Positions 3,886 to 30,716 of a DNA stretch of 64,000 bases are shown one piece after another. The translations under genes and the position numbers were made by a program. The notes below the pieces were generated by a model. It was not told the DNA's origin. It made no database searches and saw nothing but the letters and a program-made list of their open reading frames with translations. How positions within the stretch are numbered: the first letter of the stretch is position 1; each line of letters starts with the position of its first letter. Origin of the DNA: an uncultured Gammaproteobacteria bacterium (lineage in GTDB: Bacteria > Patescibacteriota > Patescibacteriia > Magasanikbacterales > UBA922); NCBI GenBank assembly GCA_964522405.1, contig CAZFTR010000003.1, positions 35,711 through 99,710 of the forward strand. Reading direction: 5' to 3'.

Positions 3886-3911
3886 AAGCCAAAAAAACAT
3901 ATACACTTTTT

Positions 3912-6779
3912 ATGCACAAACCAAAATTAAACAAAAGATCTTACGGTTATATAAAAGGAAAAAAGAAAAAAGCCCTAAAAGTCTTGAAAAAGAAAAGGGC
4001 TAAACTTCAAGGCCGTTTTCCTAATTTGAAAAGAAAAATTTTTGTCTGGACTAGCATGCTCGCTGTCTTTGGTCTTCTTTTTTTGACCATTTTTGTTGCT
4101 TGGGTAAGCAAGGATCTACCTGATCCTGATAAACTAACAGACCGACAGGTTGCTGAAAGTACAAAAATTTATGACAAAACCGGAGAGCATCTTCTCTACG
4201 AAATTTACTCTGATGAAAAACGTACATTGGTAGACCTTGATGAAATTCCCCAATACCTAATTGATGGTGTTATAGCAACTGAAGATACTAAATTCTATGA
4301 ACACAAAGGAATTAGACCTCTGAGTATTTTGAGAGCTTTTGTTTATGGTGTCTTCACAACCAAACGAGTGGCTGGGACCTCAACCTTAACCCAACAACTG
4401 GTAAAAAATGCTATTCTTACCAACGAGAGAACTATAACCAGAAAGATAAAAGAGGCTGTACTCTCAGTTCGTCTTGAACAAAAATATACTAAGGATCAAA
4501 TACTTAAAATTTATTTTAATGAAATACCATACGGATCCACAAACTACGGAGTAGAAGCTGCATCTCAAAGCTATTTTGGAAAACATGTTTCAGACTTGAG
4601 TTTAGCAGAAGCTGCAACACTGGCAGGAATTCCCAAAGCTCCGACAACCTATCTAAATAACCCTGAGCGTCTTTTAGAAAGAAGAAATTTCGTACTAAGA
4701 AGAATGTCAGAAGAAGGTTATATTACAGAAGAGCAGGCAAAAGAGGCCAAAGAACAAGAACTTGAACTGCAACAAAAATTTTCAGACATAAAAGCTCCTC
4801 ATTTTGTACTATACGTGAGAAAACAACTAGTTGAAAAATATGGAGAAAACACAGTTGACACTGGAGGGTTAAAAGTTATAACCACCCTTGATTGGGGAAA
4901 ACAACAAATCGCTGAAAAAGTAATGGAAGAAAAAGGTACTGAAGTTCTTGAGAAAGGCGGTGCAAATAACGCAGCCCTGATTTCACTTGACCCAAAGACA
5001 AACCAAATCATCGCCATGCTAGGATCCAAGGATTTTTTTGATGATTCTATAAATGGACAGTTCAATGTTGCTACTCTTGGAAGAAGACAGCCCGGATCTT
5101 CTATAAAACCAATCATTTATACTGCCAGCTTTGAAAAAGGATACACACCTGAGACCATCCTATTTGATTCTGTTACCAATTTTGCAGTATCAGGAAAAAA
5201 ATACACACCTTTAAACTATGATTTTCAAGAGAGAGGTTCAGTTAGCATGAGACAAGCTCTTCAGGGATCTTTAAATATTCCAGCAGTAAAAACACTTTAC
5301 TTGGTAGGAATAAATCAAGCTATTGAGTTTGCCAACAAACTAGGATACACCACCTTTAACAAAGACACAGTGGGGTTATCACTGGTTCTTGGTGGTGGAG
5401 AAGTAAATATGCTGGAACATGCCGGGGCCTATGCTGTTTTTGCCAACAAAGGTGTTAAACACAAAGAAATGATTAGTATCTTAAGAGTTGAAGACAAGGA
5501 TGGACAAGTTCTTGAAGAGTGGAAGAAAAAAAGAGGTGAAAAAGTTATTGACAAAGATCTTGCTGCACTAATTTCAAACGTTTTAAGCGATGATGAAGCT
5601 AGAGGATACGCTTTTGGAACTGGCGGAGTTTTAACACTCCCAGGAAGACCTGTAGCAGCAAAAACAGGAACAACCAATGGCTATGTTGACGGTTGGACAA
5701 TTGGATATACACCAAGTATCGTAACTGCTGTCTGGGCAGGAAATACAAATAATACACCTATGAAATTAGGATTTGGAGGAAGTGGTGTTGCCGGACCTAT
5801 TTGGAAAGGGTTTATGAGTGAAGCATTAAAAGATACTCCGGTTGAAAGCTTTCCAGAACCACCAAAAAACAAATCCAAAAAAGCCATACTCAAAGGATCA
5901 CATGGTGGGGGGGTAACACTTCTAGTTGATAAAGTTACCAACAAGCTAGCAACCAGCTCAACACCAGAAGAATATATTGTTGAAAGAACTTACATCCTTC
6001 CACACAGTATATTACACTATGTAAACAAAGATGATCCTCAAGGAGACCTTCCTGAAAACCCAGCAGATGATCCTCAATACCAAATATGGGAAAATTCAAT
6101 TCAGGATTGGATTAAAAGAAAAAAAGAAGAAGACCCTGAATGGGAAATAAGTTTTGAAGAGCCCCCAACTGAATATGACAATCTTCATTCACTTGAGCTA
6201 ATTCCAAAACTTGAAATTGTCTATCCTGCACCAAGCTCTACAATTACCAGCAGACAAATAAATACAGATATTAGAGTAACAGCTCCTCGCGGAGTTACCA
6301 AGGTCACATTTAGAATTGATGGAAAATATGTAGCAGTTGTTCGTCAGCATCCTTTTAATTTGAACTACTTTGCAGGTGATATTGACCCAGGAAAACACAC
6401 GCTTACAATTATTGTAGAAGATGATGTTGGAAACAAACTAGAGAAAGAAACTATTTTTATACTTGAAGCCGGTGAAGCACAACCAAGTGCTCAATGGACA
6501 AACCTTGGCAGCGAAATAGAACAAAGCTCATTTCCAAAAACACTATCAATAATACCAAGTAGAATTGATAAGATAGAATCTTTGGAAATTATAGCCAAAA
6601 AAGAAGATCAACAAATCTCGATTAAATCCATAGATAGTTTTGATAATCTTTTTAACGATAGTATTATTTTTAAGTGGGAAAATGCTCCTGAAAAAGGAGA
6701 TTGGCAAGTGTCTGCAAAAATAAAACTCAACAATGGAGACGAGATAGAATCAGGAAAAAGAACAGTTACTATAAATTAA
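3912..6779 (+). CDS. Class A penicillin-binding protein (glycosyltransferase GT51 + transpeptidase) with a long C-terminal Ig-like extension
   Basis: GT51 motifs EDTKFYEHKGIRP and GTSTLTQQLVKN. Transpeptidase motifs SGSSIKP (SxxK), SLN and KTGTT. N-terminal TM helix. Confidence 0.9.
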   Translation: MHKPKLNKRSYGYIKGKKKKALKVLKKKRAKLQGRFPNLKRKIFVWTSMLAVFGLLFLTIFVAWVSKDLPDPDKLTDRQVAESTKIYDKTGEHLLYEIYSDEKRTLVDLDEIPQYLIDGVIATEDTKFYEHKGIRPLSILRAFVYGVFTTKRVAGTSTLTQQLVKNAILTNERTITRKIKEAVLSVRLEQKYTKDQILKIYFNEIPYGSTNYGVEAASQSYFGKHVSDLSLAEAATLAGIPKAPTTYLNNPERLLERRNFVLRRMSEEGYITEEQAKEAKEQELELQQKFSDIKAPHFVLYVRKQLVEKYGENTVDTGGLKVITTLDWGKQQIAEKVMEEKGTEVLEKGGANNAALISLDPKTNQIIAMLGSKDFFDDSINGQFNVATLGRRQPGSSIKPIIYTASFEKGYTPETILFDSVTNFAVSGKKYTPLNYDFQERGSVSMRQALQGSLNIPAVKTLYLVGINQAIEFANKLGYTTFNKDTVGLSLVLGGGEVNMLEHAGAYAVFANKGVKHKEMISILRVEDKDGQVLEEWKKKRGEKVIDKDLAALISNVLSDDEARGYAFGTGGVLTLPGRPVAAKTGTTNGYVDGWTIGYTPSIVTAVWAGNTNNTPMKLGFGGSGVAGPIWKGFMSEALKDTPVESFPEPPKNKSKKAILKGSHGGGVTLLVDKVTNKLATSSTPEEYIVERTYILPHSILHYVNKDDPQGDLPENPADDPQYQIWENSIQDWIKRKKEEDPEWEISFEEPPTEYDNLHSLELIPKLEIVYPAPSSTITSRQINTDIRVTAPRGVTKVTFRIDGKYVAVVRQHPFNLNYFAGDIDPGKHTLTIIVEDDVGNKLEKETIFILEAGEAQPSAQWTNLGSEIEQSSFPKTLSIIPSRIDKIESLEIIAKKEDQQISIKSIDSFDNLFNDSIIFKWENAPEKGDWQVSAKIKLNNGDEIESGKRTVTIN

Positions 6780-8226: not shown

Positions 8227-9609
8227 TTATTTTGTTTGTGAATACAGTCTTTGTTTGATAAATTCAATATCTTGTTTTAGTTTTAAGTCATCTTCTATGT
8301 TTGAGGAGATCTTGGTGTGGGCATGCATCGCTGTTGTGTGATCTCTTCCGCCGAGTTCGTCACCAATTGCAGGGTATGAAAGTTTTAATTCCTCTCTTAG
8401 TAAAAACATGATAATTTGTCGTGGGAAAGCTAATCTTTTTTCTCTACTCTTTCCAAGAACATCTTCTATTTGAATGTCAAAGTATTCTGCAACTTCTGAA
8501 ATCATTTCTCTCGGAGTTGTTGATTTTTTCATGCTCTGTTCTTCAAAACTTGCAAGTGCGGATTTTACAGATTCCTTCGAAGGTTCTATGTTCTTGAGTT
8601 GATGTAAAGCTATTACTTTGTTTAGAGCGCCTTCGAGCTCTCGAATATTGTTGTGAATATTAATTGCGATTAAGTTTAGAAAATCTGGATCAATTTCAAA
8701 ATTTTTCTCTTGAGCCTTTGATTGTAGAATAGCTAGTCGAGTTTCAAGATCAGGATTTGAAATGTCAGCAATCATCCCCCATTCAAATCTGCTTCTTAAA
8801 CGATCTTCAAGGGCTGGAATTGCTTTTGGTGGTCTGTCACTGGTTAGTACAACCTGCTTTCCTTGTTGGTGAAGTTCATTGAAAGTATGAAAAAATTCTT
8901 CTTGGGTTTGTTCTTTTCCAGCGATAAATTGAATGTCATCAATAAGTAGAAGGTCAACTGTTCTGTATTTATCTTTGAATTCTTTTGCTCTTCCTTCTTT
9001 TACAGAACTTACAAATTCATTGGTGAATTTTTCTGAACTAACATAAAGAATTTTTGTTTGAGGGTTTGCTTCCAGCATGGCCTGTCCTATTGCTTGGATA
9101 AGATGAGTTTTACCAAGTCCTACACCACCATATATAAAGAGTGGGTTATAAGCCTCTCCCGGGCGGTCAGCAACAGCGTGTGCAGCTGCATTGGCAAGCT
9201 CATTTCCTTTTCCAACAATAAAATTATCAAATGTGTAATTTGGGTTAAGACCAAAACGTGAAGCGCGTTGATTTTTGGCAGCTGGTTTGTAAATAGGAGT
9301 GTTTTTTGTGGAAACACTTGGTTCTTCTGAAGAGGTGCATTCGTATTCATCAATATTTTTTATATTTTCAACAGCATACTCTACTCTTTTGATTGGTTTG
9401 CCGGTAATTCTCTCAAGAGATTTTACTAGAGTTGAATGATATTTTTTTTCTAACCAGCTTTTGGTAAAAGTATTTGGTACACAAATTACGATTTCTCCCT
9501 TTTCAAACTTAGCAATACCTGTGTTTCTAAACCAGGTAGTAAAATTTGCTTTTGATAGTTTGAGTTCAAAATCAGCAAGAATAGCTTGCCAGACTTCGTA
9601 ATTTGTCAT
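8227..9609 (-). CDS. dnaA: Chromosomal replication initiator DnaA
   Basis: AAA+ Walker A GGVGLGKTHLIQAIG, sensor motifs, and a C-terminal DNA-binding domain (TTAMHAHTKI). Confidence 0.95.
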   Translation of the reverse strand: MTNYEVWQAILADFELKLSKANFTTWFRNTGIAKFEKGEIVICVPNTFTKSWLEKKYHSTLVKSLERITGKPIKRVEYAVENIKNIDEYECTSSEEPSVSTKNTPIYKPAAKNQRASRFGLNPNYTFDNFIVGKGNELANAAAHAVADRPGEAYNPLFIYGGVGLGKTHLIQAIGQAMLEANPQTKILYVSSEKFTNEFVSSVKEGRAKEFKDKYRTVDLLLIDDIQFIAGKEQTQEEFFHTFNELHQQGKQVVLTSDRPPKAIPALEDRLRSRFEWGMIADISNPDLETRLAILQSKAQEKNFEIDPDFLNLIAINIHNNIRELEGALNKVIALHQLKNIEPSKESVKSALASFEEQSMKKSTTPREMISEVAEYFDIQIEDVLGKSREKRLAFPRQIIMFLLREELKLSYPAIGDELGGRDHTTAMHAHTKISSNIEDDLKLKQDIEFIKQRLYSQTK

Positions 9610-9790
9610 AATAATTTTTTTGAAAAACTAAGACCGTTAATCCATTGTATCACAGAACTTGATAACCCAAAATGTTCTGAATAAATAAAAAGTGAGTAAG
9701 ATGTGGAAAGGCTGTGGATTGTGTGGATAATTATTTAATGAAAAGAGATTTTTTTATTTAAATTTAGTGCTATTTCGGAAATAAAAAAAC
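9610..9790. promoter_or_regulatory. Candidate oriC core upstream of dnaA: DnaA-box cluster plus AT-rich unwinding stretch
   Basis: Perfect TGTGGATAA at 9722-9730. Adjacent CTGTGGATT (9712-9720) and ATGTGGAAA (9701-9709). These are followed by an AT-rich tract (GATTTTTTTATTTAAATTTAG...). Confidence 0.6.
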
Positions 9791-9848
9791 CGCCAATCCT
9801 CCTGTTTAAATTATGGTTTTTCATAAGCTAAACAGGCGGGCGGTTCTT
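9785..9848 (-). terminator. Long imperfect hairpin followed by a T-run on the minus strand; terminator for the GC-rich PGBD gene
   Basis: Minus-strand read: GAACCGCCCGCCTGTTTA...TAAACAGGAGGATTGGCGGTT then TTTTTTTATTT. Confidence 0.5.
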
Positions 9849-9931
9849 CATGAACTTTTCACCTTGGGGGGTGGCTGAATCAGCCGTAGGAAGGTGGGGT
9901 GTGTGGCGGGTGTGAGGGTTGAGGGTCAGCT

Positions 9932-10312
9932 CTAGTAGAGCAGTTCGGGCTCCGGGTAGAAGCCGTCCTCGCAGACCAGGGCGATCAGCGCCAGCTTGGT
10001 CGCGTCGTTGAACTCGCCATCGACCTGGACCTGCTCGCTCTCCTCGCTACCGTGGAGGATGAGGGCGGTCTGGAGCAGGCGCACGTCCCAGCCGGCGTCC
10101 TTCGGGTACATGACCTCGGCCCGGTACATCTGGTTGATGGTGGGCTCGTTGATCTCACCGGTGATCTCGAACTCGTCGTTGTCCTCCTGGTAGCTGCTCA
10201 GGGCCTGCCGAGTGCAGGGACCGAGCTCGCCATCGATCAGCAGCTCGCCGTCGGCGTCGTAGCCCTTGAGGGTCAGGAAGGCCTGGACCTGTCGGATCAG
10301 TTTGACATTCAT
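9932..10312 (-). CDS. Small protein with two peptidoglycan-binding (PGBD/PG_binding_1-like) repeats; gene is strongly GC-rich relative to its surroundings
   Basis: Repeats VQAFLTLKGYDADGELLIDGELGPCTRQALSSYQ and LLQTALILHGSEESEQVQVDGEFNDATKLALIAL. GAGGAG Shine-Dalgarno upstream. GC-rich codon third positions. Confidence 0.55.
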   Translation of the reverse strand: MNVKLIRQVQAFLTLKGYDADGELLIDGELGPCTRQALSSYQEDNDEFEITGEINEPTINQMYRAEVMYPKDAGWDVRLLQTALILHGSEESEQVQVDGEFNDATKLALIALVCEDGFYPEPELLY

Positions 10313-10394
10313 CTTGGGAACACTCCTCAGTGGTACCTGGCTATGGCCGGTACCTTCAAAAGTTCAAAATTAGTTATATCATTATTTTTTGGTC

Positions 10395-16136: not shown

Positions 16137-16175
16137 TGAGTCTAAAGAGAAAAGTATAAAGGTGAACGGTGGAAA

Positions 16176-16202
16176 AATTCTGATGTAAGTCAGAATTTTT
16201 TA
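16176..16202 (+). terminator. polA terminator AATTCTGA-TGTAAG-TCAGAATT plus TTTTT
   Basis: Read directly from sequence. Confidence 0.65.
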
Positions 16203-16228
16203 TTGTGAAAACTGAAAAGTTCGGCGTA

Positions 16229-16628
16229 AATAAAAACGCCCCGATGGTCAATCGGAGCGCGTTTGCTGCTGAAGGGTGGCGGGGCTCGGAGAGTCCCGCC
16301 GACGAGTCCTGATGGTCGGCTGCTGGAACAGCCAACCGGATCTCGCCGCCCACTCAGCGCAGCGCGCAGCTCAACGAGGGAAGAGACCCCTCGCAGGCCA
16401 TCGGCACCTGAAGACCCAGGCGCGTAGCACACCGTTAGCCGCTTTGTGGACATCGTCCATTAAAGCACACTTTCTGAGTCTTGTCAAGCAGTTGCGCGCC
16501 TCACCGCTGCCCTCGACAGGCGGCAAAGGAGGACGCAATGCGCTCATCGTCACCGCCCGAACTTCGTCGTCAACCACCAGGCCCTCTGCCTGAGCTTCGC
16601 TTCAGTCCTGAAGATGAGGCTCTTTAAT
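16229..16628 (+). ncRNA. Candidate structured RNA 'element A': GC-rich, non-coding-looking, paralogous to element B at 28971-29215; family not identified
   Basis: No credible ORF of 60 aa or more. Preceded by a -10-like TAAATA and bounded by the polA terminator and a 20-bp inverted-repeat terminator. Its 5' 80 nt align with element B with compensatory hairpin changes. Strand is inferred from promoter and terminator placement. Confidence 0.45.
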
Positions 16629-16650
16629 ATTGTCAGGATGGTTATAAAGT

Positions 16651-16703
16651 ATCCAAACAAAAAATACAGCCAAAAGCTGTATTTTTTGTTTGGATTTTTT
16701 TTG
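16651..16703. terminator. Bidirectional terminator: 20-bp perfect inverted repeat ATCCAAACAAAAAATACAGC-CAAAA-GCTGTATTTTTTGTTTGGAT followed by T-run
   Basis: Read directly. It separates element A (+) from the convergent ndh-like gene (-). Confidence 0.75.
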
Positions 16704-18417: not shown

Positions 18418-18591
18418 AGTGGCTTAATTATATCACAAAAATAATTGAAAAAAAATAAAATAAAAAACACCGAGTGGTGTTAAATTAAGATTCTCGACCG
18501 GCCCATGCTGAAGTGACAGGTGGTCGAGCATGGGACGGTGGGGTGAAAGAGCAGTGTGGTTTCCTCCTGTAAGGTTTGGCGGCGCAGCTCG

Positions 18592-18807
18592 CTACATGGA
18601 GGTGAAGATATGCCCCCGGAAGTCTTCAACTGCCATGGTGCGGACCGAAGTCCAGCCGATGTATGAGAGATGGACGTGGGGACGTCCCCCAAATTCGAAT
18701 TGGACATCCGGGCGAGCGATCCTCTCCTCGATTTCTTCCCTGGAGTCCAAGAGCGCGACCTGAACCACCTTGCGACCCTTGAGTCTCGGGTGGTCAACGA
18801 TTCTCAT
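18592..18807 (-). CDS. Hypothetical 71-aa protein encoded in a GC-rich segment; no family recognised
   Basis: Only protein-like frame in the GC-rich block 18470-18810. The other frames translate to Arg/Ser/Pro-rich junk. A pseudoknot-like repeat and a hairpin terminator lie just downstream on the minus strand. Confidence 0.3.
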   Translation of the reverse strand: MRIVDHPRLKGRKVVQVALLDSREEIEERIARPDVQFEFGGRPHVHLSYIGWTSVRTMAVEDFRGHIFTSM

Positions 18808-18958
18808 AGCCCCTCCTCTAGGCGCGTATTTAAGGAATAGTTAATCAAATAGGTAAGTTTTTGTCAAACAAAAAATTCCTATTTTGTGAAAGGAATTTTT
18901 TGCTATCTTTTTTGTACAAAAAAGGGAATGCCGACTTTGTGAGGAGTGCCGGCAACTC

Positions 18959-19441
18959 CTACCAGGGAAGCTTGAACGAGATGGTCGGCTTGAAGGCCAG
19001 AGACCAAGGACCGTCGACCAGCTTTCCCACTCCGAAGAGGAAAAGCAGGGAGGTCGTCTCGTTGATCTTGACGCCCGGGGTGACGGACAGTCCGATCAAA
19101 TGCTTCCACTCGTCGTTGTAGGGAGGGGTGGGTTCGTAGAGCAGGGTGATGGAGAGGAGGCTCTGCTCGGAGAGCTTAACCACTGGGCCAGTGAAGACAC
19201 GCGGGTTAGGTTTCAGTGCTGTCGTCGGGATCGAGATCCCGATTTCCGAGTGCCAGCCCAGTCCCTCGACCACCGGGAAGGCCACTCCGACGCCGAGCAC
19301 GGTTTTGCTCGGCAGAAACTTGGCGCCGTCGTCGGGGAAGGCCACGGCCCAGCTCTGGCCTGCGCCGATGCGGAAGGTCTGGGCGTTGGCAGTGTTGTAG
19401 AGGGGGGTGAGGATGGACAGGATCAGGATCAGGTTTTTCAC
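18959..19441 (-). CDS. Secreted beta-strand-rich protein with signal peptide and C-terminal aromatic residue (OmpW/PagL-sized beta-barrel-like); GC-rich
   Basis: Signal peptide MKNLILILSILTPLYNTANA. Alternating hydrophobic pattern. Ends ...FKLPW. Start overlaps the upstream gene by 4 nt (ATGA). Confidence 0.45.
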   Translation of the reverse strand: MKNLILILSILTPLYNTANAQTFRIGAGQSWAVAFPDDGAKFLPSKTVLGVGVAFPVVEGLGWHSEIGISIPTTALKPNPRVFTGPVVKLSEQSLLSITLLYEPTPPYNDEWKHLIGLSVTPGVKINETTSLLFLFGVGKLVDGPWSLAFKPTISFKLPW

Positions 19442-19713
19442 TTGGTTTCTCCTTCAAGTCCTTTAGTGAGCCAGTCGAAGAGCTTCACTCTGAGTCGCGA
19501 CTTGGCGAAAAACCAGCCTGCGCATGCGATGATGCCGGCCATGAAACCAGACCCCAGCATGTGGAACTTCAGGTTCTGCTCAGGGTTGAAACCCAGAAGG
19601 TCGCTACAGTAGTTGAACAAGTCGATCATGGCGTAGGCGTACAGGGAGACGCACCACAGAATCAACACGCCAGAGAGACCCCAGATCGGAATCACCAGGA
19701 TTTTTTTGACCAC
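19438..19713 (-). CDS. Small two-TM membrane protein (91 aa), first gene of a GC-rich two-gene cassette
   Basis: Two hydrophobic helices (ILVIPIWGLSGVLILWCVSLYAYA and GSGFMAGIIACAGWFFA). Translationally coupled to 18959..19441. Confidence 0.4.
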   Translation of the reverse strand: MVKKILVIPIWGLSGVLILWCVSLYAYAMIDLFNYCSDLLGFNPEQNLKFHMLGSGFMAGIIACAGWFFAKSRLRVKLFDWLTKGLEGETK

Positions 19714-19821
19714 AGTCGCCTCCGCGAACGGTTTAGAAGGAACAATTCAAGCTTGATGATCCAACTCTATCATATTTTTCTGTATGTGTCAAGTATATTT
19801 GGCTAAAATAAGCTAAAAAAA

Positions 19822-19905
19822 CGTCATCTACAAAATGACTAGATTTATAAATTATTGATTTTTTCGCTAAATATAGTATAATAAGATTGTCATAAAAAAT
19901 ATGAC
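19822..19905 (+). promoter_or_regulatory. Promoter TTGATT-16-TATAAT (19855-19882) with two GTCAT/ATGAC palindromes: GTCATA-N5-TATGAC at 19889-19905 over the predicted start site, and GTCAT-N9-ATGAC at 19822-19844
   Basis: Read directly. Sits just 5' of the TrmB-like regulator gene, so a likely auto-operator. Confidence 0.45.
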
Positions 19906-19911
19906 AAAACT

Positions 19912-21450
19912 ATGGTAAATAAAGATTTAGAAAAATTGGGCTTTACAAAGAATGAAGTAAAAATTTATCTTTCTCTTTTTGATCTTGGAAAAGTTCGGGC
20001 TGGAGAGATAATAGATTATACTAAATTGCATAGAAATATAGTTTATACAGTTTTAGATGAGTTAGTTAGAAGAGAGCTGGCAAGTAAGACGCTAAGTAAG
20101 GGAATAGCAGAGTTTGTGGCAAATAATCCAGATAGATTAATAGAAGAAGTGGATACAAAGAAGAGTATTGCTGAAAAATTGGCAGAAAGTTTAAAAATTA
20201 AGCAGGAAGAAAAACCTAGAGAGGTTGCAGTTTATGAAGGGGTTGAAGGAATAAAGCACGTTCGAGATAAAACCTTAAATTTAAAAAAAGAAAATACAGT
20301 ACATGTCATGGGAGCTTCAAAACTCAGCACAATGCCGGAGTTAGAAAAATATTGGAAAGCATATCACAAGAAAAGAGATCTACGCGGACAAGAAGCAAAG
20401 TTTTTATTTTTTCGTGGAGCTGCCAATTCATCTGATTGGCGTAAAAATTTACCAAATACAGAAGTTAGGGATCTGCCATTCAATGCAGAGATGCCGATTT
20501 GGTTTGAATTTTATGATGATCAATTAGGAATAGGATTACCATCAGAAAATCCACTGCTTTTTATAATAAAAAGTAAAGAAGCAGTAGAAGGATTTAAACC
20601 CTTTTTTGAATATTTTTGGAATCAGGATGTTTATGTAGATAGTGGAGAGGGAGCGCTTGATAGAGCTTTTTATTCCATGCTTAATGAACTTGAAGAGGGA
20701 GAAGAGTATTATGTACTCGGTGCTACACATGGAGAGCAAGCAGAAAGTACTTTGAGTTTTTTTGACCAGTATCATAAGAAGAGAATTGAAAAAGGAGTTA
20801 TAACAAATATGCTTGTTACACAGGATTCTTTTGAGATAATTAAGCATAGATATTCTTCTATGGGAGATCCGGATTTTGAGATAAGTCATGTGAAAAGAAT
20901 GCTGACCACAACGCCACAACCCTTTCAAATAAATATGTATAAAAATAAAGTACAAATGGTTTTGTATGGAGATGAGAATAGAGTCATGTATATGGATGAT
21001 CAAGATGTTTATGCTGGATTTAAAAGCTATTTTGACATGCTTTGGGGCCAAAAAATGGCAACCTACTCAGATGATCAGGGCGCAAGTATTGCCTTTGAGG
21101 ATATTTTGAAAACATTAAGTTCTGGAGATGAATTGCTGGTCATGGGAATTTCAGAGTTTGATCCAGATTTTTTTAAGTTTATTGAGAGCTTTCATGGGAT
21201 TAGGTCAAAAAAAGGAATAAGTGCAAGAATTTTGCTGAATGATAATGCCAAGAAAATGGGAAATGCCTTGGGAAAATTAGAGAAAACAAAAGTTAAATAT
21301 ATGAAGGAGGGTGTGGTAACTCCAGCAGTTTTTCTGATATATGGTGAAAAGATCTTGTTCAGTATTCCAAATCAGAGAACATTTTTTAGTTTAGATAACA
21401 AAGCGGCAGCAGAATCATTTAGAACGTATTTCAATTCACTTTGGGGATAG
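19912..21450 (+). CDS. TrmB-family winged-HTH transcriptional regulator with a large C-terminal domain
   Basis: N-terminal LGFTKNEVKIYLSLFDLGKVRAGEIIDYTKLHRNIVYTVLDELVRRELA matches the TrmB HTH. The roughly 400-aa C-terminal region is unassigned. Confidence 0.6.
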   Translation: MVNKDLEKLGFTKNEVKIYLSLFDLGKVRAGEIIDYTKLHRNIVYTVLDELVRRELASKTLSKGIAEFVANNPDRLIEEVDTKKSIAEKLAESLKIKQEEKPREVAVYEGVEGIKHVRDKTLNLKKENTVHVMGASKLSTMPELEKYWKAYHKKRDLRGQEAKFLFFRGAANSSDWRKNLPNTEVRDLPFNAEMPIWFEFYDDQLGIGLPSENPLLFIIKSKEAVEGFKPFFEYFWNQDVYVDSGEGALDRAFYSMLNELEEGEEYYVLGATHGEQAESTLSFFDQYHKKRIEKGVITNMLVTQDSFEIIKHRYSSMGDPDFEISHVKRMLTTTPQPFQINMYKNKVQMVLYGDENRVMYMDDQDVYAGFKSYFDMLWGQKMATYSDDQGASIAFEDILKTLSSGDELLVMGISEFDPDFFKFIESFHGIRSKKGISARILLNDNAKKMGNALGKLEKTKVKYMKEGVVTPAVFLIYGEKILFSIPNQRTFFSLDNKAAAESFRTYFNSLWG

Positions 21451-21513
21451 ATTGTGGACTCAGAAAGTACTTGATTTATGTTATAATAAAAATTCTAAAA
21501 ATAACCAAATTTC

Positions 21514-22473
21514 ATGATAATTTTTATCTACGGACCAGATACATTTCGTTCTAGAATTTATCTCAAGAAAATGATAGATAAATTTAAAGCTGATCGAGAT
21601 CCAGCAGGATACAATATTACTGAATTAGACTGTTTGAATTCAGAAGAGGTACAAAAGGTCATGTCAGAGATATTGGCAATTCCATTTTTGGCAGAAAAAA
21701 GAATGGTAATAGTCAAGAATTTGATCAGTTCAAAAGAAGTAGAACTAAAAAAAGAATTAAGAAGAAGAATAGAAGAAAAAGATTTGCCTGAAACAAGTAT
21801 AATTGTGGTAAGTGAGGAATCAGAGAAATTTCGAGCAAAGGCAGACAAAGAATTTCTAGAATTATTAAAAAAAGAAAAATACAAAGAGTATTTTAAGGTT
21901 TTAGAAGGAAAAGAGTTGTCAGTTTGGGTAAATCAAGAGGTGAAAATGCGAGGTGGTTCAATTGATAGAAAAGCCCTCAGTTATATAGTGGATAATTTCA
22001 ACTCAGACATGTGGTCGCTGAGCCATCTTGTTGATCAGCTAACAGCTTATAAGTCAGATGGAAAAGTAGAATTGGAAGATGTAAAAAAATTTTTAGAAGA
22101 AAAAATCGATGATAATATATTTAACTTGGTTGATGCTATTGTTGCCGGAAAAAAAGACCAGGCATTCAAGATGATGCGAGAGCAGTACAGAAAAGGAGAA
22201 GACAGTTTCTACGTATTTGCCATGATATTGCGTCAGTTTAAGATTATGCTACAAATTCGAGATCTAATCGATAGAGGCATTAAACCGGATGCGAAAGAGC
22301 TTGGACTTCATCCATTTGTAGTGAAGAAAACAATCCCATTAGTAAATAGATATTCAATGGCTCAGCTCAAGGAAATTTACAATCAGCTTTTGCAAATAGA
22401 TATTAAAACAAAGACCGGTCAAGGAGACCAGTCAGTTATGCTTGACCTTTTTGTTGGGTCTATTCATATATAG
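21514..22473 (+). CDS. holA: DNA polymerase III delta subunit
   Basis: IIFIYGPDTFRSRIY N-terminus, the roughly 320-aa size, and overall HolA-like helical C-terminal pattern. Confidence 0.7.
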   Translation: MIIFIYGPDTFRSRIYLKKMIDKFKADRDPAGYNITELDCLNSEEVQKVMSEILAIPFLAEKRMVIVKNLISSKEVELKKELRRRIEEKDLPETSIIVVSEESEKFRAKADKEFLELLKKEKYKEYFKVLEGKELSVWVNQEVKMRGGSIDRKALSYIVDNFNSDMWSLSHLVDQLTAYKSDGKVELEDVKKFLEEKIDDNIFNLVDAIVAGKKDQAFKMMREQYRKGEDSFYVFAMILRQFKIMLQIRDLIDRGIKPDAKELGLHPFVVKKTIPLVNRYSMAQLKEIYNQLLQIDIKTKTGQGDQSVMLDLFVGSIHI

Positions 22474-23566
22474 GTTCAATGCCTTGAGCTTTCATTTCGT
22501 TCAGAACTTTTTGTCTCATTTCAGGTAGTGCTTCCTCAAGAACTCTGTTTGCGATCTCAGCCGGACAATTTTTGGGTAATACCAATCTTAGAGGTCTTTC
22601 CATACCTTTTCTGGCAGCAGCTTGATTTAGTTGTTCTGTATCAATTTTTCCTTCAATTTCTTCTATTTTGTCAAAATTTATTATTCTTTCAGATGCAGTC
22701 ATTCCACCATTTAGGGGTGACATTTTTTTGGAAGATGCTTGTGCTTGGTCAGCATCATTAAATAGATCAACCGCACCAAGACCTTGGTCTTTTTTGGTAA
22801 CGGTTCTATAACCTATACTCATCTCAACAGGCAATCCGTCAGGTCTTTCAACATTCTCTTGAATATATTTAACCGCTCTAGTTAAAATCTGTTGTATAAG
22901 AGCATCAATTTTTTCAGAATCCATGTCTGCCGGCATATCCATATCAAGAAGAAGTCCAAATTCATCTCCACTGAAGTGAACTCTAACGTCATCAGGTCTG
23001 ACACATAAGTCAATTGCTTGTCCAAAATCTCTCAATAGTTTATTTCCTGCCTCGTGCCCATAAACATCATTGATAGTTTTAAGTCCGTTTACATCAATAC
23101 TTACCGGAACAAGAATTTTTTGTGGGCCCCTAACATTATCTTCTATATTTTCTAGACTGCTCGATAATCTATCATTAAATTGTTGACCGGTTGCTAGCTG
23201 GGGATTTAAACGATCTTTTCCCTGCTCTGCTTTTATTTCAGCAACCCTTATTCTACCCTTTAATTCACCGATGACTCTATTTGCGGCATGAATAATGCGC
23301 TGATCAAGCTCTTCACCGTCAACTGCTCTTTTGAGCCTTTCGGCAGGAGTGTCAGCAATTCTTCTTATTTCCCTTGATTGCCACTGCTCAAGTGTATGTC
23401 TTGCCTGCTCATCAAGAGAGGATTCTTTTATTACTCTTTCAACAATTTTTCTATATTTTCCATCACTAGCTATATCTTCCATTGATTCAATTAAATCATC
23501 ACTTACTTGGTCCTTTGCTACGACTTGGGCAGCAAGTCTAGAAGCCTCACTTCCTTCTCCAGGCAT
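22460..23566 (-). CDS. GGDEF-domain (diguanylate cyclase-like) protein with a variant SGDEF active-site motif
   Basis: IDVNGLKTINDVYGHEAGNKLLRDFGQAI...RVHFSGDEFGLLL. The N-terminal helical region is unassigned. Confidence 0.6.
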   Translation of the reverse strand: MPGEGSEASRLAAQVVAKDQVSDDLIESMEDIASDGKYRKIVERVIKESSLDEQARHTLEQWQSREIRRIADTPAERLKRAVDGEELDQRIIHAANRVIGELKGRIRVAEIKAEQGKDRLNPQLATGQQFNDRLSSSLENIEDNVRGPQKILVPVSIDVNGLKTINDVYGHEAGNKLLRDFGQAIDLCVRPDDVRVHFSGDEFGLLLDMDMPADMDSEKIDALIQQILTRAVKYIQENVERPDGLPVEMSIGYRTVTKKDQGLGAVDLFNDADQAQASSKKMSPLNGGMTASERIINFDKIEEIEGKIDTEQLNQAAARKGMERPLRLVLPKNCPAEIANRVLEEALPEMRQKVLNEMKAQGIEPIYE

Positions 23567-23623
23567 ATATTTATGATTTAATAATAAAACTCGGTTTTAC
23601 CCGAGTTTATTGTATCATATTCT

Positions 23624-23881
23624 TTATTTTGCGCCAGTATTTACTTTTTTCATAAGTCTAGATAACTTGCGTGCAGCGGCGTTTTTCTTGATAACACCCT
23701 TTTTTGCAGCTTTATCCAGCTTTTTTTGAGCAAATTTTACTTTATCTTTTATATCAGCAGATCCAATTGATTTTTTAGCATCTTTTATAGCTGATTTAAA
23801 GGCTTTTTTTACTTTTAGGTTAGCTACAGCCTTTTTTTGTGATTGGCGCAATGCTTTTTTAGCATTTCTTAAATTTGGCAT
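23624..23881 (-). CDS. rpsT: 30S ribosomal protein S20
   Basis: MPNLRNAKKALRQSQKKAVANLKVKKAFKS... basic helical S20 pattern. Confidence 0.85.
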   Translation of the reverse strand: MPNLRNAKKALRQSQKKAVANLKVKKAFKSAIKDAKKSIGSADIKDKVKFAQKKLDKAAKKGVIKKNAAARKLSRLMKKVNTGAK

Positions 23882-23969
23882 AAATTGCTTAAGTTTCTAA
23901 CTAAATGTCCGAAGACGTGAGAGTGAGATGAGTATAGCAGGAGTGGTGGGATTTGTCAAGATTAAGAGG

Positions 23970-24782
23970 TTATTTCCGCTTCTTATACCAATAAACAAAA
24001 AATGCACCAGTATAAAGGTATTGAGAAATAAATTGGATGCATTCAGGTTTAGAATACCAGCCGGTCAGAACATAGAGGGGTAAACCAAGTGCCCCTTTTT
24101 TATGATAGAGAATAGTCCCGGATAGATCATAGGCTTTTGTAAAAATAGAACTTGAGGGAGCAATCATATTTAGATTTTTCATAGCAGATAAACCTTCATG
24201 AATGCTGTATCCCAGCAAGAAACCGGCTTGAAGGATCAGATAAGCAAGAGTAATATTGAAAATAGTTTTGAGTTTAATTTTTACAATAGAAAAATGAATC
24301 AAGGTAACAAGGCCAACAGCAAGAACTATACCAATAAAGATCGGAAGAAGAGAATATTTACCGGCAAAAGAGAAAATAGCAATTTCAGTTCCTTCTCTCA
24401 TTACCATAAACATAGCTAGAAGAAAAATACCTTTTTTAGATAAGTTCAGGGTAGCTTTGTTGGTAATGTGATGTTTGATTTTGCTACCGTTTTTGACCAT
24501 CCAAACAATAAAAGTAGTAATCAGAACAACAGCAATCAAGCTGGCTGCACTTTCCCAAAGTTTGGCAGTAGCATCAATCTCTCCAATAAAAGAAGAGAGC
24601 GTCATGAGAATGGCACCAAAAACCAGAGAAGCCAGAATTCCAGCACCAGTCCCCTGCCAAACATTTTTCTTTAGGTTTGAGTTGTCAGATTTATCTAGAA
24701 ATTCAAGAAGAATAACAATAATAAGAAAAGCTTCCAGACCTTCTCGAAAAGCAATAATCATCGCTTGGATAAATGTTTCCAT
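23970..24782 (-). CDS. FTR1/EfeU-family iron permease
   Basis: Two REGxE motifs (FREGLEAFLII and MREGTEIAIF) and multiple TM helices. Confidence 0.75.
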   Translation of the reverse strand: METFIQAMIIAFREGLEAFLIIVILLEFLDKSDNSNLKKNVWQGTGAGILASLVFGAILMTLSSFIGEIDATAKLWESAASLIAVVLITTFIVWMVKNGSKIKHHITNKATLNLSKKGIFLLAMFMVMREGTEIAIFSFAGKYSLLPIFIGIVLAVGLVTLIHFSIVKIKLKTIFNITLAYLILQAGFLLGYSIHEGLSAMKNLNMIAPSSSIFTKAYDLSGTILYHKKGALGLPLYVLTGWYSKPECIQFISQYLYTGAFFVYWYKKRK

Positions 24783-24809
24783 GAGGTTTAAATTATTTAA
24801 ATAACAAAT

Positions 24810-25385
24810 TTATTTTTTAACTTCGCTATACCTAAAGCAAGAAACTTCATGATCATTGACCATGCCAACAGCTTGCATAAAGGCATAGATAATAGTGGAA
24901 CCAACAAAATTCATATCTCGCTTTTTTAGATCTTTAGATATTTTATCAGAAAGATCAGTTTTTGCCGGTATCTCTGACATGGATTTAAATTTATTTTGAA
25001 TAGGTTTGTAGTTTACAAAATTCCATATATATTTGTCAAAACTGCCGAACTCTTTTTGAATTTCTAGAAAGGCTTTGGCGTTTTGAATTGCTGATTTTAC
25101 TTTGAGACGATTACGAATAATCCCTTCATTTTGAAGTAGTTGATCTATTTTTTTCTGATTGTACTTTGCAATTTTATTTGGGTCAAAATCATCAAAAGCT
25201 TTTCTATAGTTTTCTCTTTTTTTCAAAACAGTGTCCCAAGAAAGTCCTGCCTGGGCACCTTCAAGAATGATCATTTCAAAAAGTTTTTTGTCATCATGAA
25301 CCGGAAGACCCCAATCTTCATCATGGTATTTTGTGTTTAGTTTATTTTTAAGAGTGGACCAGGCACATTTGGGTTTGGTTTTCAT
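24810..25385 (-). CDS. tag: DNA-3-methyladenine glycosylase I
   Basis: WGLPVHDDKKLFEMIILEGAQAGLSWDTVLKKRENYRKAFDDFD is the Tag signature. A Cys/His Zn site is present. Confidence 0.85.
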   Translation of the reverse strand: MKTKPKCAWSTLKNKLNTKYHDEDWGLPVHDDKKLFEMIILEGAQAGLSWDTVLKKRENYRKAFDDFDPNKIAKYNQKKIDQLLQNEGIIRNRLKVKSAIQNAKAFLEIQKEFGSFDKYIWNFVNYKPIQNKFKSMSEIPAKTDLSDKISKDLKKRDMNFVGSTIIYAFMQAVGMVNDHEVSCFRYSEVKK

Positions 25386-25387
25386 AT

Positions 25388-26155
25388 TTATTTTTTAAAA
25401 GTTCCTACAATCAAATCATGAAATTTTCCATTTGTTGCGAGTATGGTTGAACTGTCTTTTGTTATTGGTTTGCCTTCAATATCAGTCACTTTTCCTCCGG
25501 CTTCTTCAACAATAATAGTAAGTGCAGCAATATCCCAAATTTTTATGCTAGCTTCAACCATGATTTCCACTTTGCCTTGGGCTAACATATGATAGCAAAT
25601 ACAATCACCAACACCTCTATGGCCCCAGGCCTTTTCAGATAGATTTACCAAGGAATCTACAAGTCCGAGTTTTCTGAAGTATTTTATACCACCAAAATAT
25701 AGATAAGATTCAGATAGATCCTGTATATCTGAGACATTAATTTTTTGATCATTCAGAAAAGCGCCCTTACCTTTTTCTGCATACAACATTTCTTTCAGTG
25801 CAGGAGCATTTGAAACACCTACGATGATTTCTCCATGGTGCATCAGCGCAATTTGAGTGCCAAAAAGAGGAATTTGCCGAGCATAGTTTTTTGTTCCATC
25901 AATAGGATCAATAACCCATTGATATTCAGAAGTTAAGCTGTCTTCTCCAGATTCTTCGCCAAGAAAAGAATGATTAGGAAAAGATTTTTTAATAGTTTCA
26001 ATAATGGCTTTTTCAGATTCAGTGTCAGCAATAGTGACAGGAGAAAGATCAGATTTTCTTTCCCATTTTAAATTGTTTGAATAATGCTCCAGAATAATTT
26101 TTTCAGCATTTTTTGCTGCTTCTATGGCAACTTGGAGAAATTGGCTTTTTTTCAT
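25388..26155 (-). CDS. Inositol monophosphatase family protein (SuhB-like)
   Basis: DPIDGTKNY, WVIDPIDG and GEESGE motifs. Start placed at the internal MKKSQF... to avoid a 77-nt overlap with the upstream gene. Confidence 0.75.
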   Translation of the reverse strand: MKKSQFLQVAIEAAKNAEKIILEHYSNNLKWERKSDLSPVTIADTESEKAIIETIKKSFPNHSFLGEESGEDSLTSEYQWVIDPIDGTKNYARQIPLFGTQIALMHHGEIIVGVSNAPALKEMLYAEKGKGAFLNDQKINVSDIQDLSESYLYFGGIKYFRKLGLVDSLVNLSEKAWGHRGVGDCICYHMLAQGKVEIMVEASIKIWDIAALTIIVEEAGGKVTDIEGKPITKDSSTILATNGKFHDLIVGTFKK

Positions 26156-26162
26156 ATGTTTA

Positions 26163-26504
26163 TTATTCTTGGATGCAGCCTTTGTCACTAACATAAGGAG
26201 AAACTGGCGTTGGGCATTCACATTTTGAAAAATGTACACATTTTTTGCTTGGGCCTGAATAAGTAGGATTTGCTAGAAAGTTTAAAATACGACAATTTGG
26301 ATTTTCTTCACATTTATCAATGGGTGTAATTTTTGAGCATTCTTTATCAGTACCTTTTGATATCCATTTCCCACCTGTTGATTCACATATGTTTGCTTGT
26401 TCCTCCTCAAATGGGTCATATTTTTCATTATTAATGATTTTTCCACTGCTACAACCTACGCCTACTAAGAGAAGCGTGATCGTTAGTAAAAGTATTTTTT
26501 TCAT
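26163..26504 (-). CDS. Small cysteine-rich lipoprotein (hypothetical)
   Basis: Lipobox LLVGVGCSSG after a signal peptide. Ten Cys residues in 113 aa. Confidence 0.5.
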   Translation of the reverse strand: MKKILLLTITLLLVGVGCSSGKIINNEKYDPFEEEQANICESTGGKWISKGTDKECSKITPIDKCEENPNCRILNFLANPTYSGPSKKCVHFSKCECPTPVSPYVSDKGCIQE

Positions 26505-26573
26505 AGAATTGCTAATTATTTGAATTAATTATTCTGATAATCTCCTTTTTTTATTTTAAAAAGAATTTTTGAT

Positions 26574-27089
26574 TTAAGGATGCTCGTAATGCGTTTCTAC
26601 TACGCCAATTTTATAAGATTTAGTTTTTGTAAGTCTTAATGGTAATGCTTTATTTGCTTCTTCAAATAATTTTATGCCATCACCCAATAAAACCGGCATG
26701 GTGAATAAAATAAACTCATCAATCAAATTAGACTTTATGAATTGATTTGCCAGATTTGCGCCACCAACAAGCCAAATATTACCTTCTAATTTATCAACAA
26801 TTTTTTTGATATTTCCAGAAACAAAAGTAACATTTTCGTCTTTGCCAGTTTTTTTGTTTGAGAAAACATATCCTTTCTGTTTTTTGTAAGGATAATCACA
26901 ATCAAAACCTAGTATTTGTTGATAAGTTGTGTCACCCATAATTACAATATCTATCGGTTTAATAAAATCATTATAACCCATATCTTCTCCAGAATTATTA
27001 AACTGATCAAGCCACTTTACAGAACCATCTTTGGTGGCAATAAATCCATCAAGACTCATTGCAATGTATAGAATTATTTTTTTTGCCAT
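26574..27089 (-). CDS. RibD C-terminal domain / dihydrofolate-reductase-like reductase
   Basis: MAKKIILYIAMSLDGFIATKDGSVKWLD...IVIMGDTTYQQI matches the RibD_C family. Confidence 0.7.
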   Translation of the reverse strand: MAKKIILYIAMSLDGFIATKDGSVKWLDQFNNSGEDMGYNDFIKPIDIVIMGDTTYQQILGFDCDYPYKKQKGYVFSNKKTGKDENVTFVSGNIKKIVDKLEGNIWLVGGANLANQFIKSNLIDEFILFTMPVLLGDGIKLFEEANKALPLRLTKTKSYKIGVVETHYEHP

Positions 27090-27123
27090 ATTATAAATAA
27101 AAAACTCAATCACTATTAAATTT

Positions 27124-27387
27124 TTATTTTAGTGCACCTTCCTTTATAAGAAGCTTGCGTTTGTTTTCTATTCCTCTATTATACCCGCCTAGTCCACCAT
27201 CTGATCTAATGACTCTATGGCAAGGTATCTGTGGGTTATAATTTTTCGCCATCAGGTTGCCAACCACCCTAGAAGCTTTTGGATTTCCAGCTTGCCTAGC
27301 CACTTCTTTATAGGTCATGATTTCCCCTTTTGGAATTTTAGACACCACCTTAAGAACTTTTTCTTTAAAATTTGTTTGTTGATTCAT
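27124..27387 (-). CDS. Methylated-DNA-protein-cysteine methyltransferase, DNA-binding/active-site domain only (standalone MGMT C-domain)
   Basis: TYKEVARQAGNPKASRVVGNLMAKNYNPQIPCHRVIRSDGGLGGY with the PCHRV active-site motif. Confidence 0.75.
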   Translation of the reverse strand: MNQQTNFKEKVLKVVSKIPKGEIMTYKEVARQAGNPKASRVVGNLMAKNYNPQIPCHRVIRSDGGLGGYNRGIENKRKLLIKEGALK

Positions 27388-27529
27388 AATATTAAGAGAA
27401 AACTATCCAGATTTATTATCGTGCTAAAAAAATTAAGTTGTTTTTAAAACTTCTGTAACTTCATACACGGTGTTAAGCAGCATACGAACATATAAGTTTA
27501 ACTTATTACAATTCACATCGTCACATCAA

Positions 27530-28648: not shown

Positions 28649-28843
28649 AGTAGTCTTGATTTTTTAATTAAAATGATATAAACTGGGTTCATCATTAGTT
28701 AGGATTATAGCATGTACAGGAGTTAATGCAAATCGTTGTGGATAGTATCTTAATATTGTACGACACTCTCAACTATGCTTAAATTAGCCATAAATTAGAA
28801 AAATTGCTAATTTACCTTCCCATTCTTTTCAAGACAATATCAT

Positions 28844-28915
28844 GACCCCATAGTTTAATGGATAGAACAAGAACCTCCTAAGTTCTGGGTCCACGTTCGA
28901 TTCGTGGTGGGGTCA
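28844..28915 (+). tRNA. tRNA-Arg (anticodon CCU)
   Basis: Folded by hand: acceptor GACCCCA/TGGGGTC, D-stem GTTT/GAAC, anticodon stem AGAAC/GTTCT with loop CTCCTAA, T-arm CCACG-TTCGATT-CGTGG, discriminator A. Confidence 0.8.
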
Positions 28916-28970
28916 CATTTGGAAATTCTATATTTATAGGATTTCTTTTTTTAGATCAATTTTGCTTTTC

Positions 28971-29215
28971 AAATAAAAACACTCGATGATATCATCGAGC
29001 ACATTGTTGATGAAGGGCGGCGGGTCTCAGAGAGTCCCGCCGATGAGCTCCCATGTGTCGGCTCCGGTTCAGCTCGACAAGAGCTCATCACTCAAAGGTG
29101 AGGCAGGCCAGCATACAGGAAAAATCTGGTTTCCGGTAGCGATAAACATTCTAACCGCAGTATCGCGAAAGTACGGCGGTTCGAGTGCATTAGGCACCGC
29201 ATCACAGAGCTAGTT
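28971..29215 (+). ncRNA. Candidate structured RNA 'element B', GC-rich, paralogous to element A; sits about 55 nt after tRNA-Arg
   Basis: No protein-like ORF. The 5' 80 nt align with element A with compensatory changes in the first hairpin. Blocks of similarity continue through the element. Confidence 0.45.
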
Positions 29216-29422
29216 CAATTTACACGCTTTACTCTATTTTGTCAAATTTATATTTAATGATTTTTTAATAAAAATTTAATGATTATCGTGAAACATCAGT
29301 TTAGAATTTTTTAATTAAATCTTAATCTTTTTCCTAGTTTTATAGAGTAGTCTGTACAAAATTATTAAATGTGGGCTGTTTTGACTTTCCTAAACTGTGC
29401 ATAACTCTCCAAAGAGTTTAAT

Positions 29423-30280: not shown

Positions 30281-30446
30281 CAATGTTGTCGGAAGCTTAC
30301 AACATTTTAACTAGATAAATTAGACTATACTCAGCCTAATTTTTTATATAATCTAAAAATTGTAATTTTCCAATTTACATTTTGCTCATTTTAAATTATA
30401 TTATATTTGAATATTCAACTGGCTCCAAAGGAGCTAGGAGGCAAGA

Positions 30447-30716
30447 ATGACCAGAATGAGCGCCTACTTCGGTGGCGGTGTTATCAGCTTCAAGAGAGAC
30501 CCCGACGACAAGATGTCGCCTACTGACGGCGTGATCCAGCCGGGCAAGGAGTTTGAATTCTACCCGTCCTACTACGAGCGCATCATTCTGACCCACGGTC
30601 GTGCCACCATCAATGGCAAAACCATGGTCGCTGGTGATGAGATCGTCGTTCCTACAGGTAAAAAGATCTGCATCCTGGCTCACGAAGTGAGCTGTTACGA
30701 GTGCTACTACAGCTGA
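30447..30716 (+). CDS. ppnP: PpnP/YaiE (DUF1255) family cupin-like pyrimidine/purine nucleoside phosphorylase homolog; GC-rich gene
   Basis: SAYFGGGVISFKR...GKEFEFYPSYYERIILTHGRATINGKTMVAGDEIVVPTGKKICILAHEVSCYECYY parallels E. coli YaiE (NEYFSGKVKSIGF...GEYTF...VISGAL...AGSVFNVPGHSEF...YLCRY). AGGAGG Shine-Dalgarno. Confidence 0.55.
   Translation: MTRMSAYFGGGVISFKRDPDDKMSPTDGVIQPGKEFEFYPSYYERIILTHGRATINGKTMVAGDEIVVPTGKKICILAHEVSCYECYYS

Follow-up and report, generated by a model that had tools for sequence, protein, structure and literature searches.

A paralogous pair of GC-rich, non-coding minus-strand elements in a Candidatus Magasanikbacteria genome, possibly genes for small RNAs

What are two GC-rich, related elements that lie between the genes of an otherwise AT-rich bacterial genome? 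The question is raised by a window of 64,000 nucleotides (the whole stretch of DNA analysed here; positions 35,711 to 99,710 of contig CAZFTR010000003.1, assembly GCA_964522405.1), in which an earlier reading of the sequence, hereafter the original prediction, had singled out element A, beside the DNA polymerase I gene polA, and element B, beside a tRNA-Arg gene, as paralogous structured RNAs. Both are GC-rich as stated, with 63-66% for A (16229-16455) and 50-53% for B (28971-29212) against 38% for the genome and the window, and both are paralogous and non-coding. The reading that we favour, to which we would assign a probability of roughly 45%, is that A and B are paralogous small RNA (sRNA) genes on the minus strand, whose products of ~225-240 nt would combine a variable 5′ domain with a conserved 3′ module and act in trans.

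A single block of similarity between A and B is present in the window (96 nt, 77% identity, E ~1e-10 by blastn) and there is no third copy. The homology is confined to a module of 119 nt (A 16229-16347, B 28971-29089), whose global alignment gives 92 matches (z = 18.8 versus shuffles); by global alignment no relationship exists between the flanks, and only a weak likeness between the promoter regions (29/46 matches, z = 1.5). A further collinear block that had been proposed, beginning GCAGGCCA, lies where the global alignment equals that of shuffles (z = 0.0), and has to be dropped. A 100-nt GC scan places the borders of the two elements at 16199-16645 and 28968-29148, as 2 of 8 GC-rich islands in the window. 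The structured element in A is shorter than the 16229-16628 first given for it, comprising 16229-16455, or 16229-16489 if a promoter-like site is included. The structured cores measure 227 nt in A and 242 nt in B. Compared with B, A contains no internal insertion; its extra 170-190 nt lie beyond the 5′ domain (16456-16650, including the promoter-like site) and give no indication of folding, whichever strand is taken (z +0.57 and -0.71). Most of this is ~160 nt of GC-rich (55%) filler (16490-16650, assigned to no strand) upstream of the promoter-like site in the minus-strand sense, which falls outside the conserved and structured unit and has no codon periodicity, no homolog and no counterpart in B.

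Several features indicate the strand of the elements. A terminator scan found intrinsic terminators on the minus strand in both copies, in each case a GC stem-loop followed immediately by TTTTATTT. The terminator of A (16228..16260) has the stem-loop GCGCTCCGATTGACCATCGGGGCGT with a 10-bp stem at 16236-16260, and that of B (28971..29002) the stem-loop GTGCTCGATGATATCATCGAGTGT at 28979-29002. The 'AAATAAAAAC' motif of both copies, read by the original prediction as -10-like hexamers ahead of plus-strand elements, is the complement of the minus-strand terminator T-tract. The base-for-base aligned block and the two hairpins described there are real, but the supposed common 5′ end on the plus strand is the terminator end of the minus-strand unit. 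Likewise, the first hairpin does pair in both copies despite differing stems, but it is the terminator stem and not key covariation evidence, compensations in a terminator hairpin being weak evidence for a functional fold because any stable stem serves a terminator. Whole units fold well beyond shuffled controls, with z-scores of -5.58 (A) and -5.30 (B) on the minus strand and -3.47 and -3.95 on the plus strand. The minimum free energy (MFE) of the module is 5-6 kcal/mol better on the minus strand (-60.8 for A and -53.5 for B, compared with -54.5 and -48.0 kcal/mol on the plus strand), and several of its pairs are G-U in the minus-strand sense, for which the plus strand would have A-C. Given the better MFE, the stronger z-scores, the G-U pairs and the terminators, the RNA sense at both loci is the minus strand, and the plus-strand orientation first proposed is reversed.

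Each terminator stands back-to-back with one serving the opposite direction. Beside that of A lies the plus-strand polA terminator (16173..16204), an inverted repeat (I3) followed by a T run that is also a terminator-shaped Rfam near-hit, and beside that of B a plus-strand hairpin and T run after tRNA-Arg(CCU) (28922..28952), read from the sequence. A dedicated terminator for each direction at each locus implies transcription arriving on the minus strand. With a further, bidirectional terminator at 16651-16695 on its other side, A is bracketed by terminators as had been observed. At the opposite end of each unit we find a minus-strand promoter-like site, in A TTGACA-17 nt-TTTAAT with a TG two bases upstream of the second hexamer (16461..16489, read directly from the sequence) and in B TTGACA-17 nt-TAAATT (29217..29245, 10/12 matches in a promoter scan), both sites being consensus matches only. 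They lie 142 nt (A) and 156 nt (B) from the module, the position in A corresponding to that in B. On the favoured reading each RNA would start at a sigma-70-type promoter, from ~16453 in A and ~29210 in B, and would stop at its own Rho-independent terminator, at ~16229 and ~28971 respectively, back-to-back with that of a convergent neighbour, which is polA at A and tRNA-Arg at B.

In the minus-strand sense both units are built alike: the promoter-like site comes first, then the 5′ domain, a long bulged hairpin (P1/P2) and a short one (P3), after which a linker leads to the terminator. The 5′ domains are self-closing multibranch folds, of 106 nt and 66% GC in A (16348..16453; MFE -53.2 kcal/mol, z -3.17) and of 121 nt and 50% GC in B (29090..29210; MFE -37.2 kcal/mol, z -2.94). 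P1/P2 of A (16301..16347) adopts the same fold alone or in context, with compensatory and wobble changes relative to B, and its counterpart in B (29042..29089) is defined by the MFE fold and the pairing comparison with A. P3 was located by pattern search as GGCGGG-A-CUC-UCC-GAG-C-CCCGCC in A (16278..16300) and GGCGGG-A-CUC-UCU-GAG-A-CCCGCC in B (29019..29041), giving the consensus GGCGGG-A-CUC-UCY-GAG-M-CCCGCC with invariant stems. The conservation claimed for this GGCGGG/CCCGCC hairpin is borne out, A and B being the only sites in the window within 3 mismatches of the pattern (0 expected by chance). The linker is a C-rich, single-stranded stretch of 16-17 nt, (A/G)CCCUUCA(G/U)CA(G/A)CAA; in A (16261..16277) it reads ACCCUUCAGCAGCAAAC, is unpaired in both MFE and centroid structures and shares 13 of 17 positions with B, and in B (29003..29018) it reads GCCCUUCAUCAACAAU and is unpaired in the MFE structure. 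The module alone folds with z-scores of -6.56 (A) and -6.62 (B), and an identical three-hairpin architecture is predicted independently from A and from B.

The helices of the module were compared pair by pair. Of the predicted base pairs, 28 fall in identical alignment columns in A and B, and in these all cells pair (56/56), as against 33-47% when the partner is slid by 1-3 columns, the control for this set. Twenty of the pairs are invariant, six change on one side through G-U, two change on both sides (C-G/U-A in P1 and G-C/U-G at the P1/P2 junction) and none is broken; introducing an indel of one column by hand reveals another full compensation, G-C/U-A, at the closing pair of P2, the second such case. 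Differences between A and B affect 10 of 56 paired and 30 of 65 unpaired sites. After 10 random substitutions in paired positions all pairs remain intact in 5e-6 to 3e-4 of simulations, a figure that is optimistic in that the 28-pair set was selected as common to both copies. These comparisons make it likely that the RNA helices are under selection, short of the standard applied to RNA families. An RNAalifold consensus of the full-length pair was set aside as over-fitted on an unreliable 5′ alignment.

In one alternative, the module would be a cis-acting conditional terminator, similar to a riboswitch or attenuator, in which terminator formation would depend on whether P1 folds. By eye, the P1 3′ arm, CUC(G/A)UCGG, resembles the terminator 3′ arm in each copy and could pair with the terminator 5′ arm over 5-7 bp as an anti-terminator. 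Read-through would then give antisense transcription across the polA 3′ end from A, or across tRNA-Arg into rmuC from B, and rmuC does follow B in the same orientation, at a distance of 327 nt, with the opposite-strand tRNA-Arg gene in between. The alternative pairing is however short and spans the very stable P3; A converges with polA and has no minus-strand gene downstream for ~3 kb; rmuC in relatives lacks such a leader; and no riboswitch family matches, though the same scan detects a SAM-I riboswitch elsewhere in the window. We therefore regard a conditional terminator as improbable.

Because GC-richness drew attention to A and B, its meaning in this genome matters. The other six GC-rich islands of the window (9811-10364, 18465-19745, 30413-30787, 31852-33206, 46041-47126 and 47447-49077; 53-62% GC) hold intact genes, including a PG_binding_1 gene, a Ppnp/cupin-like gene, a pre-ATP-grasp gene behind a SAM riboswitch, two GCS2/YbdK-type ligases and a small three-gene unit, and as read from the sequence their genes have their own promoter-like sequence, a long structured 3′ untranslated region (UTR) and a terminator. 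These islands resemble recent horizontal acquisitions from high-GC donors, lie within ~40 kb of the replication origin, and were probably acquired horizontally. GC-richness in this genome thus mostly marks acquired genes rather than RNAs, and taken alone it is weak evidence for a non-coding RNA (ncRNA), as these six islands are ordinary protein genes. A and B are the two exceptions, having no coding signal. Codon-position GC separates them cleanly from the protein-gene islands: in all eight genes of the six islands GC at the third position is 0.70-0.92 and at the second 0.32-0.48, whereas candidate open reading frames (ORFs) in A and B are flat (0.42-0.73) with no third-position excess.

The same data bear on whether A and B might be small-protein genes, or fragments of GC-rich genes. 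Open frames of 37-105 aa exist, among them a minus-strand 37-aa ORF at 29095-29205 and a 68-aa ORF at 16374-16577, and a good Shine-Dalgarno sequence accompanies an ATG at 16539 (+). No frame is conserved between the copies, six-frame comparison of A with B recovering the same short block in every frame, interrupted by stops; in the best frame a hand count of core differences gives 2 synonymous and 5 non-synonymous. The longest minus-strand ORF runs through the terminator. None of ten ORFs from A and B is in a collection of 15 billion proteins (exact look-up), six-frame translation of the module yields nothing at E<=10 among 5.8 billion protein clusters, the longest ORF (105 aa, spanning the filler beside A) has 0 matches among 1.84 billion representative proteins, and tblastn with the island proteins returns no match to either element. 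A and B are non-coding, and degraded fragments of a GC-rich protein gene, the outcome named by the original prediction as fatal to it, are likewise removed by the lack of periodicity and of protein homologs; we consider a coding origin scarcely credible.

Known RNA families do not account for the elements. An Rfam cmscan of the whole window at the gathering threshold reports three tRNAs and a SAM-I riboswitch, the latter being the positive control. At both loci, on both strands, at E<=10 and with relaxed filters, only terminator-shaped near-hits appear, and RNase P RNA (RF00010/RF00011), transfer-messenger RNA (tmRNA), signal recognition particle (SRP) RNA, 6S RNA, riboswitches and ribozymes are all without a match, in keeping with the original inability to recognise RNase P, tmRNA or SRP RNA; ARAGORN also finds no tmRNA. 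A highly diverged housekeeping RNA (RNase P RNA, 6S, SRP or tmRNA) at one or both loci would be favoured by the presence of rnpA in the window, with no RNase P RNA found within the 64 kb, and by the length of 230-240 nt, which is within the range of 6S and SRP RNAs. 6S RNA (RF00013), of which some bacteria have two paralogs, is similar in size class, in being an independent gene and in its two copies. It forms a long rod with a central bubble, however, whereas the MFE folds of A and B have a multibranch 5′ domain with three hairpins after it. Loci of this kind would also be expected to be conserved in relatives, in which the site of A is empty and a covariance model of the elements finds nothing. 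Together with the absence of any model match these points largely refute a housekeeping RNA, which we hold to be most improbable.

The distribution of the elements was examined beyond the window. The DNA polymerase I encoded beside A has a best non-self match of only 66% identity, placing the genome in Candidatus Magasanikbacteria of the candidate phyla radiation (CPR) and showing that no close relative has been sampled. In the closest available relative the stop codons of polA and Pyr_redox_2 are 3 bp apart, compared with 585 bp in the window, so that A sits in an insertion and its site is empty in that relative; two further relatives have different genes downstream of polA and no A-like sequence. 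A covariance model (R1) built from A and B scores the two at 133-136 bits and finds nothing else in the window above 17 bits (the best other match has 16.8) and nothing at the syntenic loci of the relatives. Pattern searches of larger collections, which need exact matches and may miss diverged relatives, returned 63 loci for the P3 hairpin among 185,579 species genomes, all generic GC hairpins from high-GC taxa, none extending beyond the hairpin and all at <=30 bits with the A/B model; one chance match without the 5′ arm for P3 plus linker in JGI metagenomes; and chance matches only for three patterns in IMG/VR. A comparison of A (16200-16700) with plasmids and phages by blastn in 'distant' mode gave no match. 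Contigs from two sequencing runs in the Logan collection of public assemblies represent the same organism at 100% identity and confirm several island junctions, so the islands are not assembly chimeras.

The empty site in the closest relative raises the possibility that the hairpins act as DNA, at the end of a small mobile element or as a recombination site. It would also fit such a role that B follows a tRNA-Arg gene and that a Logan contig ends exactly at island borders. Against it, A and B have no terminal inverted repeats, no convincing target duplications and no repeat of the tRNA 3′ end, and the fold, owing to its G-U pairs, is specific to one strand, a property indicative of RNA. The ~40 larger ORFs of the window scanned against Pfam are housekeeping or island genes (including dnaN, dnaA, polA, PBP1, type IV pilus genes, S6 and SSB), with no reverse transcriptase, transposase, integrase or RNA-guided nuclease of the TnpB/IscB type among these proteins, which extend to ~52 kb. 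We judge a DNA-level role very unlikely. Flanking direct repeats (16112-16133/16214-16235, and AT-rich pairs around B) were considered and discarded as being at chance level by estimate. The Logan contigs L069 (= 18468-28972) and L073 (= 30793-32177) end within a few bases of island borders (18468, 28972 and 30793), at terminator hairpins or T-tracts; such ends may reflect assembly breaks at palindromes, drops in coverage with GC, or strain-level presence and absence of islands.

The weightiest alternative, which we still hold to be rather unlikely, is that the module is a structured 3′-UTR or terminator cassette, a repeated intergenic element that was brought in with, or copied between, acquired GC-rich cassettes. 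The GC-rich DNA upstream of each module would then be decayed and unrelated cargo, and the module would serve to terminate or stabilise transcripts at convergent junctions. Several findings agree with this: the six other islands have long structured 3′ UTRs and terminators ending in GTTTTTATTT, the A/B homology stops exactly at the module edge, the closest relative lacks the insertion seen at A, and A carries 160-190 nt of unstructured GC-rich filler. GC-rich structured 3′ UTRs of 100-150 nt with the same terminator tail follow small island genes at 9781-9931, 18470-18591 and 30717-30817, and at 4780-4895 of contig L075 from a relative, and the weak 16.8-bit match of the covariance model falls on one of them (30725-30817). 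The module itself is nevertheless absent from the 3′ UTRs of the other islands, 16.8 bits being far from the 133-136 of A and B; both 5′ domains are closed folds (z ~ -3) without residual codon periodicity; in A and B alike a TTGACA hexamer precedes the module at a corresponding distance; and the helix-preserving changes imply selection on RNA after duplication. In comparison with repetitive extragenic palindromic or bacterial interspersed mosaic elements (REP/BIME-like) and with structured 3′-UTR or terminator modules, A and B similarly have stable GC hairpins, convergent junctions, a terminator end and more than one copy, but they are limited to two copies, have a promoter-like site and a structured 5′ domain, and no palindromic unit occurs elsewhere in the window.

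Returning to A and B as sRNA genes, the RNAs would most likely act in trans, as regulators or by binding protein, with the conserved 3′ module providing stability and a binding surface, in which the linker might offer a pairing site, P3 a handle for protein, or both. A number of observations weigh against this reading. The elements are known from two copies in one genome, for which reason covariation statistics are not possible, and a shuffle control with two sequences was uninformative (126/500). P3, being invariant, says nothing on pairing. The 28 pairs were selected for being common to A and B. When A's own MFE structure is mapped on B in ungapped MAFFT columns, 21 of 41 pairs are unchanged, 7 change on one side, 2 change on both, 9 are broken and 2 gapped, the broken pairs falling in register-shifted parts of P2 and the terminator; the preservation of helices holds for the 28 shared pairs (2 double, 6 one-sided, 0 broken) but not throughout this unbiased mapping. 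The 5′ domains of 106 and 121 nt align no better than shuffled sequence, and the site in A is rejected by the promoter scanner, its second hexamer having T rather than A at position 2. The relatives examined hold no homolog of A or B, and a search for targets of the linker within the window recovered only self-antisense artefacts in GC-rich pseudo-ORFs. As far as the sequences surveyed indicate, A and B are most likely lineage-specific, and they are possibly an undescribed family, resting on two copies in one genome.

Paralogous, terminator-ended sRNAs that act in trans are known from bacteria, as exemplified by OmrA/OmrB, GlmY/GlmZ and Qrr. Like these, A and B are stand-alone intergenic units with a promoter-like site and a Rho-independent terminator, and as duplicates they have conserved one portion of the RNA while the remainder has diverged, with a single-stranded stretch beside the terminator. 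They differ in their greater length (~230 nt), in a GC content far above that of the host genome, in matching no described family and in being two copies in one genome. We know of no sRNA chaperone or target for this phylum. A more ambitious form of the same reading would have A and B as modular RNAs, in which an interchangeable 5′ domain specifies the target or cargo and the 3′ module (P3 and linker) is a handle for a protein encoded elsewhere, as part of a lineage-specific RNA-guided or RNA-scaffolded system. The sharp boundary between 5′ domain and module, the common architecture and length and the lack of a known family are compatible with it. No partner gene was found nearby and no target match in the window, and we regard such a system as a speculative and very unlikely prospect.

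The way in which A and B came to attention follows the logic of the GC-rich intergenic region (GC-IGR) approach, by which candidate structured ncRNAs are recognised as long GC-rich intergenic regions in AT-rich genomes, and in which a motif needs numerous representatives and covariation to be accepted (PMC6429828, PMC11109978, PMC8723152). A and B share this detection logic, but with n=2 and with a GC criterion confounded by acquired GC-rich genes. Two lessons of method follow from the case, namely that the 'compensatory hairpin' proved, once the correct strand was read, to be a terminator, and that GC-richness is an unreliable ncRNA signal where a genome carries GC-rich acquired genes, codon-position GC being what discriminates. 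To our knowledge regulatory RNAs of the CPR or Patescibacteria have hardly been described, and a literature search on them found nothing. If the favoured reading is true, A and B would be a new family of a familiar kind, terminator-ended bacterial sRNA genes, notable mainly for their CPR setting; if confirmed, an sRNA pair defined from promoter to terminator would offer a concrete entry to the RNA biology of ultra-small uncultivated bacteria.

Some features of the window lie apart from A and B. The GC-rich PG_binding_1 gene (9932-10312, -), with its own promoter-like sequence and terminator, sits in the island 9811-10364 between dnaA (8227-9609) and rpmH, the presumed oriC region, where the closest relative has a short dnaA-rpmH spacer only. 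The SAM-I riboswitch (33325-33426, -; 62 bits) lies upstream of a GC-rich 436-aa ORF (31913-33223, -) that has a weak pre-ATP-grasp match only and is not the usual kind of gene behind a SAM riboswitch; gene and riboswitch were probably acquired together. The paralogous GC-rich GCS2/YbdK-type carboxylate-amine ligases (45994-47052 and 47574-48950, +) have an AT-rich glutamine amidotransferase on one side and an M20 peptidase on the other (45080-50300); the region resembles a small cluster for peptide or gamma-glutamyl metabolism whose origin is mixed, and both ligase islands have a long spurious ORF on the opposite strand. A 160-aa GC-rich ORF (18959-19441, -) with a signal-peptide-like N-terminus and the C-terminus ...SFKLPW matches nothing in Pfam or NCBIfam and recalls an outer-membrane beta-barrel protein, which would be odd for the CPR. 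A gene for a TrmB-like regulator (29423-30280) has one in-frame stop after codon 94, indicating a pseudogene, a sequencing error or recoding. TrmB-like genes stand divergently beside GC-rich units in three cases, at B, at the island 18465-19745 (with 19912-21450) and on contig L075 of a relative (3909-4223 with 4452-4779).

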